This document shows, in pieces, positions 4,342-64,000 of a DNA stretch of 64,000 nt (within the stretch, counting starts at the first letter, position 1; each line of letters opens with the position of its first letter). The stretch lies in the sequence record MK962753.1, one strand, 5' to 3'. Below the pieces are notes generated by a model. It saw only the letters and a list, made by a program, of their open reading frames with translations, had not been told where the DNA came from and did no database searches. The DNA is from Shigella phage JK32. Made by a program: the position numbers and the translations under genes.

Positions 4342-4369
4342 ATTATACATTAGCTAATCAGGTTGTCAA
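4342..4369 (-). promoter_or_regulatory. Sigma70-type early promoter (TTGACA-16-TATAAT)
   Basis: Reverse strand TTGACA acctgattagctaatg TATAAT upstream of ORF 3776-4309. Confidence 0.6.
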
Positions 4370-4371
4370 CA

Positions 4372-4407
4372 CCTAAAAACGAAAAAGCCGACCCTTTCGG
4401 ATCGGCT
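4372..4407 (-). terminator. Rho-independent terminator after nrdD
   Basis: Reverse strand stem agccgatccgaaagggtcggct followed by T-run. Confidence 0.6.
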
Positions 4408-6319: not shown

Positions 6320-6814
6320 TTATTTTACCAGTTCTGCTAATTCTTTTTCCGCCGCTTCCAGTTCAGCTTTCAGTTGTTTAATCTCTTGTCGCTTCTTATT
6401 AGCGGCTTCCTGCTTACTATTTCGGATAACCTGATCTAGATATGAATCCCACTCCTGAATATTTTTGATAATGTAACCGTCAACGTTCAGAACTTTAATA
6501 TTAAGAACTTCTTCCAGCTTACTTAAAGAACGTTGTGTTTCGGGGAAGAAATAGTCATATTCACCTCGGTCAAACCAGTAGCGTATGCCAGCTTTATCTA
6601 AACGACGATGCAATTCATCAAAATCTCTACCATCTTCGACGATGAGTTTGTCTACATCGCCATTACAGTTAACAGAGACTTTGAATCTAATATTATCAAC
6701 CCCACCAAAAACATCAATAAGGATAGTTCCTATCGTGTTATCCGCGCTTCCAGTATCCATAAAAGATTCTAGTTTTTCTTGATTAGTAACGTACCAAACA
6801 TCTTGTTTCCACAT
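6320..6814 (-). CDS. Hypothetical protein with coiled-coil tail, grouped with the GKTYxWK family by architecture
   Basis: ORF track; C-terminal KQLKAELEAAEKELAELVK. Confidence 0.55.
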   Translation of the reverse strand: MWKQDVWYVTNQEKLESFMDTGSADNTIGTILIDVFGGVDNIRFKVSVNCNGDVDKLIVEDGRDFDELHRRLDKAGIRYWFDRGEYDYFFPETQRSLSKLEEVLNIKVLNVDGYIIKNIQEWDSYLDQVIRNSKQEAANKKRQEIKQLKAELEAAEKELAELVK

Positions 6815-6844
6815 AATATAATCCTCTCGTTGTTAAGTGGGAGT

Positions 6845-6872
6845 ATTATAGCATACTCCCTTCGCATGTCAA
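6845..6872 (-). promoter_or_regulatory. Sigma70-type early promoter (TTGACA-16-TATAAT)
   Basis: Reverse strand TTGACA tgcgaagggagtatgc TATAAT; hairpin gggagta/tactccc overlaps -10. Confidence 0.6.
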
Positions 6873-8047
6873 GCACTAACTTTTTTCTTTACTGCTTTCA
6901 CCTTCTGGCGAATTGCTCGAATCTCTTCGATCTCTTTTTCAGTCTCTTTAACAATTTCTTTGCGATTCTGAATATCTGTATCGAGATTATCATCAAGTTT
7001 AGGCAGCATGTCAATCAAGAACTTTTTAAAGTCTTTCAGGTTTCTGATAACAGCACCTTCACCCATTACCGCCACCCCTACACCATCCGGCAGATCGCCA
7101 AACAGTTTAACCAGTTCAGACAGATGATCATGATCTTCTAGTGCTTCTTCCGGTTCAGATGGCAGTTCAACAAAGTTATAACGTTCATCATTGCTGATGA
7201 GGTGATACCAGCAAAGCCCGAATGATTTCGGTGTATATTCTACACCATCAATTTCAACCGAGTCAACACTTCCATAATCATCTACTTTAGTTACCTTAAA
7301 TCCTTGTCCCAGCTTTTGAACAATTTCAACAACATGACTTGATACAGTTTCAGCGGTAAACCAATATGGCAAATTATGCTGATTTGGCTTGTAGCGTTCA
7401 CCTACTTTAAATCTCTGACCAGCCGCTTGCATAGCATGAAATTGTTGTTTCGTGATTTCCGCGAAGTATTCAAATTCGCTACCATCAAACACACAAGCCC
7501 ATTGATCACAAAAACGATCTGCCTTGACGGTTTCACCTTTCGCGGTGATCATGGTAGCTGATCCGTGCAATTCTTCTTCAACTAAAAAGCCATATTCGAC
7601 AAAATCGACAAGTTTCATGGCTTCTTTGTGCTCTGGATCATGCTCTCCCCAGAATCGCTTAAATTCTTGCAAACCTTCCGGGGTAAACGAATAACATTTA
7701 CCTTTTTCAAAGTAAGTCGGCATTGCATCCTCTTTCTTGTTCATCGCTTCGTATGCCTCTTTTGAGATGCGTTTAAAGTATTTGCGCTCATTGTGCATAA
7801 TCATAGTAGACCAATAATAAACGATATCCTCAGCGGAATAAACTACATCTCCAGCTTCAATAGTAATAACATGACCGTGGTCATCTTTTTCTAATACTTT
7901 AAAGCCCTTTTCTACGATTTCAGCAACCCGAATATGACCACGGCGCGAAGCATCGGTCAGAATAATTGAATAGCGAGAAAAGTCTAGAAACTCATCTTTA
8001 CCGCCTTCACGGAATGCATAGTAATGACCTTCAAAGAATTTAGCCAT
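6869..8047 (-). CDS. Hypothetical protein with three tandem repeat domains and a coiled-coil tail
   Basis: Repeats FEGHYYAFREGG, FEKGKCYSFTPEG, FKVGERYKPNQ; KYFKRISKEAYEAM motif shared with 8103-8687. Confidence 0.6.
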   Translation of the reverse strand: MAKFFEGHYYAFREGGKDEFLDFSRYSIILTDASRRGHIRVAEIVEKGFKVLEKDDHGHVITIEAGDVVYSAEDIVYYWSTMIMHNERKYFKRISKEAYEAMNKKEDAMPTYFEKGKCYSFTPEGLQEFKRFWGEHDPEHKEAMKLVDFVEYGFLVEEELHGSATMITAKGETVKADRFCDQWACVFDGSEFEYFAEITKQQFHAMQAAGQRFKVGERYKPNQHNLPYWFTAETVSSHVVEIVQKLGQGFKVTKVDDYGSVDSVEIDGVEYTPKSFGLCWYHLISNDERYNFVELPSEPEEALEDHDHLSELVKLFGDLPDGVGVAVMGEGAVIRNLKDFKKFLIDMLPKLDDNLDTDIQNRKEIVKETEKEIEEIRAIRQKVKAVKKKVSA

Positions 8048-8077
8048 AATATAATCCTCTCGTTGTTAAGTGGGAGT

Positions 8078-8106
8078 ATCTTACTACTCCCGTTTCATCA
8101 TGTCAA
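8078..8106 (-). promoter_or_regulatory. Sigma70-type early promoter (TTGACA-17-TAAGAT)
   Basis: Reverse strand TTGACA tgatgaaacgggagtag TAAGAT; hairpin gggagta/tactccc. Confidence 0.5.
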
Positions 8107-17375: not shown

Positions 17376-17404
17376 ATTATGCTATACCCTATTCCGGTTG
17401 TCAA
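17376..17404 (-). promoter_or_regulatory. Sigma70-type early promoter (TTGACA-17-CATAAT)
   Basis: Reverse strand TTGACA accggaatagggtatag CATAAT. Confidence 0.6.
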
Positions 17405-17416
17405 CACCTAAAAACG

Positions 17417-26891: not shown

Positions 26892-27467
26892 TTATTTTGG
26901 ATCTGGGAAATTCAATAGAGCATATTCTCCATAAAATTTCCTAGCTGCATTATCATAAGCGATTGCAGCTTCGATTTCTGTGTCATATTGTCCAAGAACA
27001 TGTCTTTGTAGGTTGACCATTATACTAGCTCTCCATTTCTTACGCAAATCCTTCCTGTTACACTTACTAACACCCTTATACACACTAGAAAACTTTTTAG
27101 ACTTCTTCTTTCTATTATGTTGATTTTGCGCGTCGGTTGCCTCCCTAAGATTTGGAGGATTGTTATTAGCAGGATTACCGTCAATATGATCAATTAATCT
27201 AACTTGCGTCCCATGTTCTAGAAACCAAACAACCCTATGCACGAATAGATGAACTCTAGGAAGACCGTCATCTCTACTATGCCAAAATCTAAGATGACCA
27301 TCTTTATTTGTTCTGACTTTAACTAAATCGCCGTGTTTATATCTACTCCCTAATGGTCGTCCTTTGATAGCTTTACTATCGACTCTATAATATAAGATAC
27401 CCTCTATATGAGCATATCTAAGTTTTATCTCGTTTTGTAGGGATTCATCCCAATATTTAAAGGTCAT
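26892..27467 (-). CDS. HNH homing endonuclease with AP2-type DNA-binding domain
   Basis: IDHIDGNPANNNPPNLREAT...NQHN (HNH); C-terminal YKGVS...WRASI...AAIAYDNAA (AP2-like). Confidence 0.75.
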   Translation of the reverse strand: MTFKYWDESLQNEIKLRYAHIEGILYYRVDSKAIKGRPLGSRYKHGDLVKVRTNKDGHLRFWHSRDDGLPRVHLFVHRVVWFLEHGTQVRLIDHIDGNPANNNPPNLREATDAQNQHNRKKKSKKFSSVYKGVSKCNRKDLRKKWRASIMVNLQRHVLGQYDTEIEAAIAYDNAARKFYGEYALLNFPDPK

Positions 27468-27512: not shown

Positions 27513-27902
27513 TTATACCGGGTCTGGATATACCTTTTTATCGAGTTCCATATGCGGTCCGTCTTTAAAAGTAACCCAATCAACACCGCAGATAACAGGA
27601 ACACCCAATTCTCGACCAGCTTGTTTAAATGCATCAGCGATCATGCGGTAATATTTCATGTTCCATGTATCCTTATCTTTAGGATACGCTACAACGTCAA
27701 CCGCGAAACCGTGAAGATGACGAGATTTCATAGTCTTAGATTTACCTTCCGCAACATATTTCTTTTGCGTTTCTAGACTACGCACACCTTCCGTAATACC
27801 AAAATCGACCGGAGTCAGTTCTAATGCACGATGAACGACTTTTACTAGGTCTGGATGTACACCAACAAGCCGATCTTTGCTTCTTTGAGATAATTTAAAC
27901 AT
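27513..27902 (-). CDS. Peptidoglycan peptidase (M15 family), probable endolysin
   Basis: Zn-binding pattern around SRHLHGFAVDV and GPHMEL; 129 aa; sits at the e-gene position. Confidence 0.7.
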   Translation of the reverse strand: MFKLSQRSKDRLVGVHPDLVKVVHRALELTPVDFGITEGVRSLETQKKYVAEGKSKTMKSRHLHGFAVDVVAYPKDKDTWNMKYYRMIADAFKQAGRELGVPVICGVDWVTFKDGPHMELDKKVYPDPV

Positions 27903-28390: not shown

Positions 28391-28533
28391 GATGCACCAC
28401 TAATCAGACAACCCGCGCCAAGCGATTCCCACCAGATCAGGGAAGCGACAATAACACCGAATCCCCAGACTACCGCAATCACAACATAGGCAAAGATCGC
28501 CCAAAACATATATTTGTTCATAATAAACCCCAT
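28342..28533 (-). CDS. Small membrane protein
   Basis: Two TM helices. Confidence 0.4.
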   Translation of the reverse strand: MGFIMNKYMFWAIFAYVVIAVVWGFGVIVASLIWWESLGAGCLISGASCLITGVIVGFLIWED

Positions 28534-28706
28534 TCACCAAACAAATAAGAAAAAAGCCATATCAACAGAAACGAGGCAATTGATCCGGCAAGCAAAATGA
28601 TATTAGAGAATCCGCTGTTTATCCAGTCGATCAAACAGAATACACCAGTATAGAAGCATAATCCCATTACAAAGCATACTATAAGCAACCATAGATAAAA
28701 CGCCAT
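28518..28706 (-). CDS. Small membrane protein (5' end lies inside the duplicated segment)
   Basis: MAFYLWLLIVCFVMGLCFYTG...; start codon copy repeated at 28970-28972. Confidence 0.45.
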   Translation of the reverse strand: MAFYLWLLIVCFVMGLCFYTGVFCLIDWINSGFSNIILLAGSIASFLLIWLFSYLFGEWGLL

Positions 28707-29123
28707 AGAAAGCCCTCTAGTGAGCTAATTTAGTGCGGGTAGTACATTACCCTACCCGCATTGTTAATCATCGCAGAGCGTGTTCTAGAACGATTCCACA
28801 CCAACCGCTAACCACACCCAAACACACAGCAACAAGCAGATTCATTCGGTCTTTTGAGCAAAATGATATTAGAGAATCCGCTGTTTATCCAGTCGATCAA
28901 ACAGAATACACCAGTATAGAAGCATAATCCCATTACAAAGCATACTATAAGCAACCATAGATAAAACGCCATAGAAAGCCCTCTAGTGAGCTAATTTAGT
29001 GCGGGTAGTACATTACCCTACCCGCATTGTTAATCATCGCAGAGCGTGTTCTAGAACGATTCCACACCAACCGCTAACCACACCCAAACACACAGCAACA
29101 AGCAGATTCATTCGGTCTTTTGG
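28592..29123. repeat. Perfect tandem direct duplication, 2 x 266 bp
   Basis: 28592-28857 reads identically to 28858-29123 by eye; contains hairpin gcgggtag/ctacccgc. Confidence 0.85.
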
Positions 29124-29194
29124 AATCATCGCAAACAGAACAACACCCACACAGAAAGCCATCACCATTGAAGTTAACATTTGTTCAACCATTA

Positions 29195-30008: not shown

Positions 30009-30202
30009 GTCACCGTTTTGTAAAGAAACACAATAAAATCCAAGACAAGAAAGACAGTGTAAATGATCATCGTCAAGACAGTAAACACTGTCAGATTTTC
30101 ATCGTTAGTTAATTCATAGTCGCCCATCCATACAATAACAAGATATAGCATTGAAAGAATGGAAGCACCTACGAAGTTAAAAACATATTCTTGAGCGTCA
30201 TA

Positions 30203-33713: not shown

Positions 33714-33742
33714 ATTATGCTATAGTCGTTTATGGTTGTCAA
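33714..33742 (-). promoter_or_regulatory. Sigma70-type early promoter (TTGACA-17-CATAAT)
   Basis: Reverse strand TTGACA accataaacgactatag CATAAT. Confidence 0.6.
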
Positions 33743-33753
33743 CACCTAAAAAC

Positions 33754-57581: not shown

Positions 57582-61190
<3,609 letters not shown>

Positions 61191-61221
61191 CGATAATGCA
61201 TAAAAAGATGAGGAAATTCTA

Positions 61222-63219
61222 ATGACTCTATTATCACCGGGTTTCGAAACGAAAGAAACTACTCTCTCCACTACCATTGTGCAATCTGCGACTGGTCGCG
61301 CGGCACTGGTGGGTAAATTCCAATGGGGTCCAGCTTTCCAGATTGTTCAAGTAACTAATGAAGTTGAATTAGTTAATAAATTTGGTCAGCCGGATAATAA
61401 CACCGCAGACTATTTCATGAGCGGGGCTAACTTCCTCCAGTATGGCAATGATCTGCGTGTTGTTCGTGTATTGAATACAGAAAAAGCGAAAAACTCCACC
61501 ACTCTCGCGGGTAACGTTGCATTTGAAATTACCAACGAAGGTTCCAACTATAAAGTTGGTGACGTAATTAAAGTAAAATATAAAAACTCAGAAATTGAAA
61601 CAGGCGGTAAAGTTACTAAAGTAAGCACCGAAGGTAAAGTTAAGGGAATCTTTATTCCGACTGGTAAGCTGATCGCACACGCTAAAGCTGTTGGTACTTA
61701 CCCAGAAGTAAACGGATATACCGTAGAAATCACTTCCGGTACGGGTAACTCTTCGGCATCTATTACTATTTCCAGCATTGTGACAGATTCCGGCTTGCTG
61801 TTAACCGACCTAGAAACTTCTCGCTCTAATATCACTAATCAGACTTTCTTGACCAAGCTGAAAAAATATGATATGCCAGCGGTGAGCGCAATCTATGCAG
61901 GTGAGATCGGAAACTCTCTGGAAGTTGAAATCCTTTCCCGTAGTGCATTTACTGGAACTGCTCCGAATCTGACCATGTATCCTTACGGTGGCGAACGTAC
62001 CGCTGCACGCAATCTGGTGGCATACGGTCCGCAGAATGATAACCAGTACGCATTTATTGTACGTCGTGATGGCGTTATGGTAGAATCCTTTGTACTATCC
62101 ACCGTAAAAGGTGATAAGGATGTTTACGGCAATTCCATTTATATGGATGATTTCTTTGCTCGTGGCGCAAGTCAGTACATCTACGCAACCGCTCAAGGCT
62201 GGGTGGATGGGTTTAGTGGCATCATCTCTCTTGCGGGTGGTCTGTCTGCTAATGAAGCATCCACCAACGACCATCAAAATGACCCGTTTATCGGTGCGAT
62301 GATGCAAGGTTGGGATTTGTTCGCTGAACGTGAAACTATCCACGTAAACCTGCTTATTGCGGGTGCTTGCGCTGGTGAAGGTGATAACTTCTCTACCGTA
62401 CAGAAATATGCTGTTTCCATCGGTGATGAGCGTCAGGATTGCTTAGTGATGGTTTCTCCGCCACGTAGCACCGTTGTTAATATTCCGGTCACTACCGCAA
62501 TTGATAACCTGATCCACTGGCGCGAAGGTAGCAACAACTACTCAGACAACAACATGAACATTAATACCACTTACGCGGTTATTGATGGTAACTACAAATA
62601 TCAGTATGACAAATATAACGATGTAAACCGTTGGGTTCCGTTGGCTGCTGATATTGCTGGCTTGTGTGCTCGTACTGATGCTGTATCCCAGCCGTGGATG
62701 AGTCCGGCAGGTTATAACCGTGGTCAGATCATGAACGTGGTTAAACTGGCAATTGAGCCTCGCAAGGCGCACCGTGACCGTCTGTATCAGGCCGCAATTA
62801 ACCCGGTAATCGGTGCTGGTGGTGAAGGTTTTATCCTGATGGGTGATAAAACCGCTACGACTGTTCCTAGCCCGTTTGACCGAATTAACGTTCGTCGTCT
62901 GTTTAACATGCTGAAAAAGAATATCGGTGATTCAAGCAAATACAAACTGTTTGAAAACAATGATAACTTTACTCGCGCTTCCTTCCGTATGGAGGTTTCG
63001 CAATATCTCAGCACGATTCGCTCTCTGGGTGGCATTTATGACTTCCGAGTACAATGCGACACCACAAATAACACGCCAGATGTAATTGATCGTAACGAAT
63101 TTGTTGCTAGCATGTTCATCAAACCAGCAAAATCGATCAACTATATCATGCTCAATTTCACTGCTGTTGCAACTGGTGCTGATTTTGACGAAATTATCGG
63201 TCCGGCTAACCAGGCATAA
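61222..63219 (+). CDS. 18: Tail sheath protein gp18
   Basis: 665 aa vs T4 gp18 659 aa; synteny. Confidence 0.9.
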   Translation: MTLLSPGFETKETTLSTTIVQSATGRAALVGKFQWGPAFQIVQVTNEVELVNKFGQPDNNTADYFMSGANFLQYGNDLRVVRVLNTEKAKNSTTLAGNVAFEITNEGSNYKVGDVIKVKYKNSEIETGGKVTKVSTEGKVKGIFIPTGKLIAHAKAVGTYPEVNGYTVEITSGTGNSSASITISSIVTDSGLLLTDLETSRSNITNQTFLTKLKKYDMPAVSAIYAGEIGNSLEVEILSRSAFTGTAPNLTMYPYGGERTAARNLVAYGPQNDNQYAFIVRRDGVMVESFVLSTVKGDKDVYGNSIYMDDFFARGASQYIYATAQGWVDGFSGIISLAGGLSANEASTNDHQNDPFIGAMMQGWDLFAERETIHVNLLIAGACAGEGDNFSTVQKYAVSIGDERQDCLVMVSPPRSTVVNIPVTTAIDNLIHWREGSNNYSDNNMNINTTYAVIDGNYKYQYDKYNDVNRWVPLAADIAGLCARTDAVSQPWMSPAGYNRGQIMNVVKLAIEPRKAHRDRLYQAAINPVIGAGGEGFILMGDKTATTVPSPFDRINVRRLFNMLKKNIGDSSKYKLFENNDNFTRASFRMEVSQYLSTIRSLGGIYDFRVQCDTTNNTPDVIDRNEFVASMFIKPAKSINYIMLNFTAVATGADFDEIIGPANQA

Positions 63220-63252
63220 TCAGTAAATTAGCATAGATTAAAAGTTAAATCA

Positions 63253-63273
63253 AGCGGGGAGAAGTTCCCCGCT
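63253..63273 (+). promoter_or_regulatory. Intercistronic RNA hairpin between genes 18 and 19
   Basis: agcggggagaagttccccgct, no T-run; same stem as the hairpin after gene 19. Confidence 0.4.
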
Positions 63274-63292
63274 CTATTAAGGAATATCAATT

Positions 63293-63787
63293 ATGGCACT
63301 CGATTTGAATGATATTACACGCGGTTTCGAGTCTGGCGATTTTGCTCGTCCTAACCTGTTTGAAGTTGAGATCCCATATCTGGGGCAAAACTTTAAGCTG
63401 ATGTGTAAGGCTGCTACTGTCCCGGCTGCTACCGTAGAAAAAATCGCTGTAGGTTATCAAAACCGTAAAATTAACATCGCTGGCGACCGTGTATACGACG
63501 ACTGGACCATCACTGTATTCAACGATGACGCACACAAGATCCGTGATGCTATCGTTGCATGGAGCGATCAGACACATGGCACTGGTTCGGCGATCACGGG
63601 TGCAACTCCGGCACAATATAAGAAACAAGCTATTGTTCGTCAACTTAACCGTAACACCGAAGCATCAAGCGAAAAAACATTGTACGGTATTTTCCCGCTT
63701 AATGTCGGTGAAGTTACTCTCGATTGGGATCAAAACAACGAAGTTGAAACCTTCGAGGTTACTTTCGCTATCGATTGGGTAGAATAA
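63293..63787 (+). CDS. 19: Tail tube protein gp19
   Basis: 164 aa vs T4 gp19 163 aa; synteny. Confidence 0.9.
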   Translation: MALDLNDITRGFESGDFARPNLFEVEIPYLGQNFKLMCKAATVPAATVEKIAVGYQNRKINIAGDRVYDDWTITVFNDDAHKIRDAIVAWSDQTHGTGSAITGATPAQYKKQAIVRQLNRNTEASSEKTLYGIFPLNVGEVTLDWDQNNEVETFEVTFAIDWVE

Positions 63788-63797
63788 ATATATTATC

Positions 63798-63818
63798 ACG
63801 CGGGGATTATTCCCCGCT
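63798..63818 (+). promoter_or_regulatory. Intercistronic RNA hairpin between genes 19 and 20
   Basis: cgcggggattattccccgc; same gcgggga/tccccgc stem as 63253-63273. Confidence 0.4.
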
Positions 63819-63843
63819 TAATATCTCCCAATCGAGGTGAATA

Positions 63844-64000
63844 ATGTTTAATAGATTAAAGATGCTTGCGCGTTGGGCGGATTTCGACAACGACAAATAC
63901 GAAGAACAAATTAAAGCAAAAGCGGAATCTATCGCTGCACCAAATAACAGTGATGGTGCTACGGAAGTAGAAATAAACGATAATACCCCCGCTAGTGCAT
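63844..64000 (+). CDS. 20: Portal vertex protein gp20, N-terminal part (continues beyond window)
   Basis: MFNRLKMLARWADFDNDKYEEQ resembles recalled T4 gp20 N-terminus; synteny. Confidence 0.75.
   Translation, partial: MFNRLKMLARWADFDNDKYEEQIKAKAESIAAPNNSDGATEVEINDNTPASA

Follow-up and report, generated by a model that had tools for sequence, protein, structure and literature searches.

A perfect 266-bp tandem repeat in a Krischvirus genome record, probably a finishing artefact rather than a gene duplication

Short segments of the RB49-like phages are known to be shuffled within a hyperplastic early region of small ORFs. In RB49 and phi1, PeSL-mediated modular shuffling takes place by homology exchange between promoter-plus-stem-loop cassettes that flank ORFs, and it is accompanied by mini-circles (Arbiol et al. 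2010, PMC2839356). The junctions formed in this way join short segments head to tail and include dimers. Direct repeats of a similar length class to the one described here are found in phages of the T7/SP6 type, where the two copies are terminal, and a 266-bp terminal repeat has been reported for an SP6-like coliphage (PMC6563267). Short-range rearrangements of a few hundred base pairs also arise by microhomology-mediated deletion or duplication (replication slippage), and perfect direct repeats of arbitrary length remain in genome records whose overlapping ends have not been trimmed. Here we compare a perfect internal repeat in one phage record with each of these systems.

The DNA that we analyzed, referred to below as the window, is a stretch of 64,000 nucleotides from the record of Shigella phage JK32 (MK962753.1). 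Megablast placed it in the genus Krischvirus, the RB49-like T4-type coliphages, and the best match at the locus was vB_EcoM_G5211 (98.1%). Its strand and gene order are those of records that follow the RB49 convention, with window position 1 corresponding to RB49 position 30139. Two repeat finders and a direct string comparison identified a perfect two-copy tandem repeat with a period of 266, in which all 266 of 266 bases are identical between copies (TRF score, 1064). The initial annotation had reported two identical tandem copies of this length, and that much stands, but its coordinates (28592-28857 and 28858-29123) were shifted by +1, such that the last bases of the two intervals differ (A at 28857, G at 29123). 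The repeat is arranged as follows.

28591 to 28856, copy 1 of the 266-bp unit, the downstream copy on the minus strand: promoter-less gene A 3' fragment, hairpin, and intact gene B start.
28857 to 29122, copy 2 of the 266-bp unit, the upstream copy on the minus strand: intact gene A 3' part, hairpin, and start of chimeric ORF B'.
28856 to 28857, novel junction (plus strand, ...tcttttg / agcaaaatg...): blunt; microhomology with either parental flank, 0 bp.

The repeated tract is exactly 532 bp long (2 x 266) and is bounded by mismatches at both flanks, 28590 (A) against 28856 (G) and 28857 (A) against 29123 (G). Since the match is exactly as long as the period and both flanking bases are mismatched, no microhomology can be assigned to the junction. 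In register, the 80-nt neighborhoods of the two ancestral breakpoints are identical at 26 of 80 positions, which is close to random, and the best local alignment of the breakpoint flanks is gapped, out of register, and marginal (score of 12; the 95th percentile for random pairs is 11). The unit is the sole long exact repeat within the 64-kb window, and a perfect match of 266 nt cannot be due to chance. A search of all 64 kb found no adapters, poly-G, or N residues, and the large ORFs of the window are intact.

The genes of the locus lie on the minus strand, in a run of small hydrophobic ORFs upstream of the M15 endolysin gene (27513-27902), and all of these small ORFs match Krischvirus-specific PHROGs of unknown function. 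In single-copy relatives, the minus-strand order is a 52-aa gene (gene A), a 62-nt spacer with a hairpin, and a 62-aa gene (gene B). With the duplication, the order is intact gene A (29192-29034), hairpin, chimeric ORF B' (28972-28808), a start-less gene A 3' fragment, hairpin, and intact gene B (28706-28518).

29034 to 29192, minus strand, gene A, intact: 52 aa with two hydrophobic segments; PHROG 16035 (unknown function).
28518 to 28706, minus strand, gene B, intact: 62 aa with two hydrophobic segments; PHROG 19354 (unknown function).
28808 to 28972, minus strand, chimeric ORF B': 54 aa, consisting of gene B residues 1-39 and then 15 out-of-frame gene A residues KRPNESACCCVFGCG.
28768 to 28856, minus strand, duplicated gene A 3' fragment (codons 24-52), in copy 1.
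28734 to 28760, minus strand, intergenic hairpin copy 1, GCGGGTAG...CTACCCGC: 9-bp stem in the fold and 9-nt loop.
29000 to 29026, minus strand, intergenic hairpin copy 2, located by repeat search.

The 266-bp unit spans gene A codon 24 to gene B codon 39, with the right breakpoint (29122/29123) inside the former codon and the left breakpoint (28590/28591) inside the latter. The contents that the initial annotation had attributed to the unit were all recovered on this strand: the 3' end of the upstream small membrane ORF (codons 24-52 of gene A), the hairpin (present in both copies), and the ATG and first 38 codons of the membrane ORF at 28518-28706 (gene B), to which 2 nt can be added. The claim that the second copy creates a chimeric, frame-shifted ORF was likewise correct and refers to B'. 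This ORF lacks the second hydrophobic segment and shares its ribosome-binding region with gene B. The gene A 3' fragment in copy 1 lacks both a start codon and a ribosome-binding site of its own, apart from an internal Met28 (25-aa ORF, 28768-28845). The gene A protein is identical in JSE, G5211, phiS, and seven metagenomic contigs. Exact-protein look-ups found no identical protein on record for the window's gene B allele and no gene on record in public assemblies for the exact B' product. The promoter-like matches within the 266-bp unit are only weak, and neither a promoter gain nor a functional ORF resulting from the duplication is evident.

The locus is an allelic mosaic, in that the window carries nearly the KFS-EC allele in gene B (28620-28740) and exactly the allele of G5211, JSE, and ELT4 in gene A (28740-29190). 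We considered whether the breakpoints coincide with the point at which the nearest relative switches and rejected this, as the allele switch lies at the intergenic hairpin, at ~28740. The 61-nt segment around the hairpin has an RNA minimum free energy (MFE) of -16.9 kcal/mol; no U-run follows the hairpin, and it was not called as an intrinsic terminator. Its loop (28742-28750) occurs in both orientations among relatives, reading TACATTACC in the window and roughly the reverse complement in ELT4 and contig L012, a distribution that suggests flip-flop of the loop by exchange between the stem arms.

The window shares with the RB49/phi1 system its phage group, its hyperplastic early region, and a head-to-tail junction of a short segment, but it differs in that the breakpoints are intragenic and without homology, and in that no sigma-70 promoter adjoins the hairpin, which sits mid-unit. 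We therefore rejected a PeSL-mediated origin: the breakpoints fall in gene A codon 24 and gene B codon 39, no promoter match of at least 10/12 was found at either, and the breakpoints have no mutual homology. Elsewhere in the window, the motif GGTTGTCAACACCTAAAAAC(GAAAAA) occurs three times (4361-4386, 17396-17415, and 33734-33753), reading on the minus strand as an AT-rich tract followed by TTGACA, and it probably represents the conserved early-promoter portion of RB49/phi1 PeSL cassettes.

Single-copy versions of the locus, which the initial annotation had proposed as a check, are present in nearly every related isolate. The locus is covered by every one of the 58 Krischvirus records in the phage collection, 57 of which are exactly 266 bp shorter there, corresponding to a single copy; the 58th (vB_EcoM_Skers) differs by adapter junk and not by the window's duplication. 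Another 17 public contigs (Logan, ENA, JGI, and metagenome) are single-copy or carry deletions, so that the 266-bp duplication is absent from all 58 phage records and all 17 contigs. The exact junction pattern had 0 matches in IMG/VR. An invariant 30-mer from the hairpin matched only ECD7 in IMG/VR, one single-copy contig in metagenomes, and nothing in GTDB genomes, and neither complete E. coli genomes nor PLSDB plasmids gave a megablast match.

Some of these relatives carry natural rearrangements at the same locus. Phage ELT4 and two metagenomic contigs (L012 and L016) have a 146-bp deletion that removes gene B (window equivalent, 28562-28707) between 6-bp TATGGC direct repeats. In another contig (L017), gene B and the next two small ORFs are lost in a deletion of ~570 bp between 9-bp GGTAATGTA direct repeats, one of which is the hairpin loop. 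Both deletions are classical microhomology junctions. They serve as a local control and provide real examples, at this very locus, of short-range rearrangements on the scale of a few hundred base pairs, as is the window's repeat, and they differ from it in having short direct repeats at their junctions where the window has none. Slippage or microhomology-mediated recombination would be recognized by a short direct repeat of at least 2 bp at the ancestral breakpoints and a tract longer than twice the period; we found no such repeat and a tract of exactly 2 x 266. Because 0 bp are shared at the window junction, compared with 6 bp and 9 bp in the natural rearrangements, slippage and microhomology-mediated recombination are disfavored as the source of the window repeat. 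The initial annotation had offered replication slippage or recombination, or else an assembly artefact; the slippage half of this proposal has lost ground, and the artefact half is favored by the absence of the repeat in relatives, by terminal overlaps in sister records, and by an assembly scar in Skers.

We checked the ends of five Krischvirus records with nonconventional starts and found that two of them keep perfect terminal overlaps; FL38, UPWr_E1, and FL04 have no terminal overlap.

KFS-EC (MH560358.1), positions 1 to 821 identical to 163895 to 164715: perfect terminal overlap of 821 bp.
vB_EcoM_011D4 (MT478991.1), first 115 nt identical to the last 115 nt: perfect terminal overlap of 115 bp.

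In KFS-EC the overlap inflates the genome length and duplicates two annotated CDSs, and in 011D4 it inflates the length. Rotating either record would yield an internal, perfect, homology-free tandem repeat that is present in one record only. The likeness to the window extends to a perfect direct repeat of arbitrary length, homology-free ends, confinement to a single record, and a T4-type genome without fixed ends. The difference is one of position, since the copies in KFS-EC and 011D4 lie at the record ends, whereas those of the window are adjacent, internal, and at least 28 kb from either window end, and for this reason we infer an additional step of rotation or concatenation for the window's own record.

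We conclude that the 266-bp tandem repeat is probably not a biological duplication of genes but a finishing artefact, namely, an unmerged overlap between contig ends. T4-type genomes are circularly permuted. From such a genome an assembler would return a linear contig with overlapping ends, or several contigs with overlapping ends. If a 266-bp overlap were left unmerged, and the sequence were subsequently opened and rejoined so as to match the gene order of RB49, or the contigs were concatenated, the same 266 bases would appear twice, head to tail, at an internal position. The true genome would then resemble that of every relative in having one copy of the unit between its left and right flanks (L-U-R), and it would contain no 54-aa chimeric ORF. 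The RB49-convention strand and order of the window fit a post-assembly rearrangement of this kind, and arranging assemblies of T4-like phages, including Krischvirus isolates, after a published relative is a stated practice (PMC6563267). The repeat has the features expected of an artefact: all bases are identical between the copies, the junction is arbitrary and without shared sequence, and independently assembled close relatives lack the duplication. We also counted for the artefact the fact that the natural rearrangements at the locus are repeat-flanked deletions, unlike the blunt repeat of the window. No selective rationale for the duplication is visible, given that genes A and B are intact, that the extra ORF is without a second hydrophobic segment, and that promoter-like matches are weak.

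Some observations count against an artefact. The overlaps left by common de Bruijn assemblers correspond to k values of 55, 77, 99, 115, and 127, and 266 bp is not a typical k-mer overlap, so that an artefact would call for an overlap-layout assembler, long reads, or a manual join. In addition, the window is otherwise clean, both in its freedom from adapter, poly-G, and N sequence and in its intact large genes.

An artefact of a related kind is present at the same locus in vB_EcoM_Skers (MW748999.1, ~147526-147789), where a 263-bp insert interrupts the gene A homologue. The insert contains exact matches of 22 nt to the Illumina TruSeq universal adapter and of 19 nt to the adapter reverse complement, as well as poly-G, together with re-duplicated phage segments of 118 nt and 48 nt; it is a proven assembly scar. 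A 35-aa CDS (SKERS_245) has been annotated on it. The Skers junctions fall at window equivalents ~29085, 29116/29117, 29121/29122, and 29230, of which 29121/29122 is 1 bp from the window's right breakpoint and another is within 6 bp of it. The scar and the window repeat thus affect the same gene (A) at nearly the same breakpoint, and both re-duplicate neighboring phage sequence, but the scar contains Illumina adapter and poly-G, whereas the window repeat consists of phage sequence only. If an artefact in this 3-kb locus is taken as given, we estimate the chance of a 1-bp match between Skers and the window at 0.01-0.03, and coincidence is therefore unlikely. Similarity between the breakpoint and the Illumina adapter was considered as the cause and rejected, as it amounts by eye to a CTCTTT-like run of 5 to 6 nt, which is too weak.

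Two other accounts of the repeat have to be weighed against an unmerged overlap. The duplication could be genuine and very recent, produced by illegitimate joining during replication or recombination (e.g., end joining or topoisomerase-mediated exchange) or through the return of an excised circle to the genome, and we regard this as unlikely. A plaque bottleneck would fix such an event. The gains would be another hairpin and the 54-aa chimeric membrane ORF, and with genes A and B both unharmed and all genes thus preserved, the change would be nearly neutral. The sequence as given is consistent with it, as the repeat is free of adapters and Ns and the hyperplastic early region around the locus, which has many small ORFs, demonstrably undergoes frequent indels. 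T4-type phages are subject to tandem duplication, and such an event is compatible with a blunt junction. RB49-type phages, moreover, are reported to excise small segments and re-join them as mini-circles and dimers (PMC2839356). The details of the junction argue the other way: microhomology is zero where both natural rearrangements at the locus use repeats of 6 to 9 bp, and both breakpoints are inside coding sequences and not in promoter/stem-loop cassettes. None of the relatives or contigs (0/58 and 0/17) has the duplication, and homologous recombination between the copies should remove it quickly. In T4 genetics, spontaneous duplications are rare in stocks, and a perfect 266-bp repeat would segregate at a rate of about a percent per cycle. 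Finishing errors, by comparison, are demonstrably frequent in Krischvirus records, and the prior for a genuine duplication is lower than the finishing-artefact rate observed in the genus. On these grounds, namely that duplications are rare and quickly lost in T4 stocks and that finishing errors are frequent in the genus, we judged an artefact likelier than a genuine duplication.

The breakpoints could also represent real DNA ends, left by a preferred packaging cut, a nick site, or a 266-bp direct terminal repeat joined upon circularization or rotation, which strikes us as very improbable. In its specific form, this account would make 29122/29123 in gene A a preferred physical DNA end in Krischvirus virions (a pac-like cut or a site-specific nick), with the repeat as its footprint through misassembly or as a terminal repeat; to this form, too, we give hardly any credence. 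Its appeal is that a hot spot of DNA ends would explain why other Krischvirus assemblies break at the locus, through over-represented fragment ends that disrupt the assembly graph, and why adapter is fused 1 to 6 bp from 29122/29123 in Skers, which is an indirect hint. Three independent assemblies have contig-end features within ~350 bp, namely, the window (28857 and 29122, in coordinates of copy 2), the Skers junctions, of which one is 1 bp from the window's right breakpoint, and the start of the KFS-EC record (window equivalent, 29179). The record boundaries of other relatives scatter widely, however, and another pair falls within ~200 bp by chance, which makes the KFS-EC coincidence weak. 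None of the metagenomic contigs ends at either breakpoint, the nearest end being 29 nt away, and the fragment that follows the Skers adapter extends to the right of the site, a poor fit to a right-hand terminus. T4-type phages package by headful without fixed ends. The large terminase of the window is itself of the T4 type (Terminase_6N/6C) and gives no indication of fixed-end packaging; T4-type phages are treated as headful and without fixed ends in PMC6563267, and we found no published terminus or packaging analysis for Krischvirus. Whereas the copies of T7/SP6-type short direct terminal repeats are terminal, those of the window are adjacent. The 266-bp terminal repeat of the SP6-like coliphage was rejected as a match and is coincidental, as it belongs to an unrelated podovirus with another packaging system.

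Several other features of the window were recorded. Its large terminase gene is split (58076-61187, plus strand) into two parts.

58076 to 59827, plus strand, terminase part 1: Terminase_6N profile positions 5-106, followed by a TnsA/endonuclease-I-like domain.
59808 to 61187, plus strand, terminase part 2: Terminase_6N resumes at position 107, and the part carries Terminase_6C.

Of the 58 Krischvirus records, five (G2494, kaaroe, SAP, TB34, and phiS) contain the splitting sequence of ~1.29 kb, which is absent from the rest of those listed; it resembles a mobile element of the intron or intein type that carries a homing endonuclease. Just downstream of the endolysin gene lies a gene for an HNH_3 + AP2 homing endonuclease (26892-27467, minus strand). 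This gene is found in a subset of relatives only (e.g., G5211, JSE, and phiS), and others have an unrelated ORF of 161 to 163 aa beside the endolysin gene. A 35-nt exact direct repeat, CATAATATAATCCTCTCGTTGTTAAGTGGGAGTAT (6812-6846 and 8045-8079), brackets a 392-aa minus-strand ORF (6869-8047) that has no Pfam match. On the minus strand this repeat comprises a ribosome-binding site and ATG, meaning that two adjacent genes share identical translation-initiation regions. The tail sheath/tube region (61000-64000) has ~90% identity to the closest Krischvirus records, compared with 95 to 98% in the early region, and the phage may be a fairly divergent member of Krischvirus in its structural module.

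As an artefact, the repeat would matter little in practice: the record would be 266 bp too long, and a spurious 54-aa ORF could spread into protein databases. It would also add to the evidence that finishing errors are frequent in Krischvirus, the few records checked having yielded two terminal overlaps and one adapter scar. A real duplication would capture, at a very early stage, the origin of a chimeric small membrane ORF in the hyperplastic early regions of T4-type phages, although it would not be new in kind. Only a preferred DNA end would, if true, change our picture of the biology of these phages, because sequence-specific ends would be unexpected in a T4-type phage that packages by headful.
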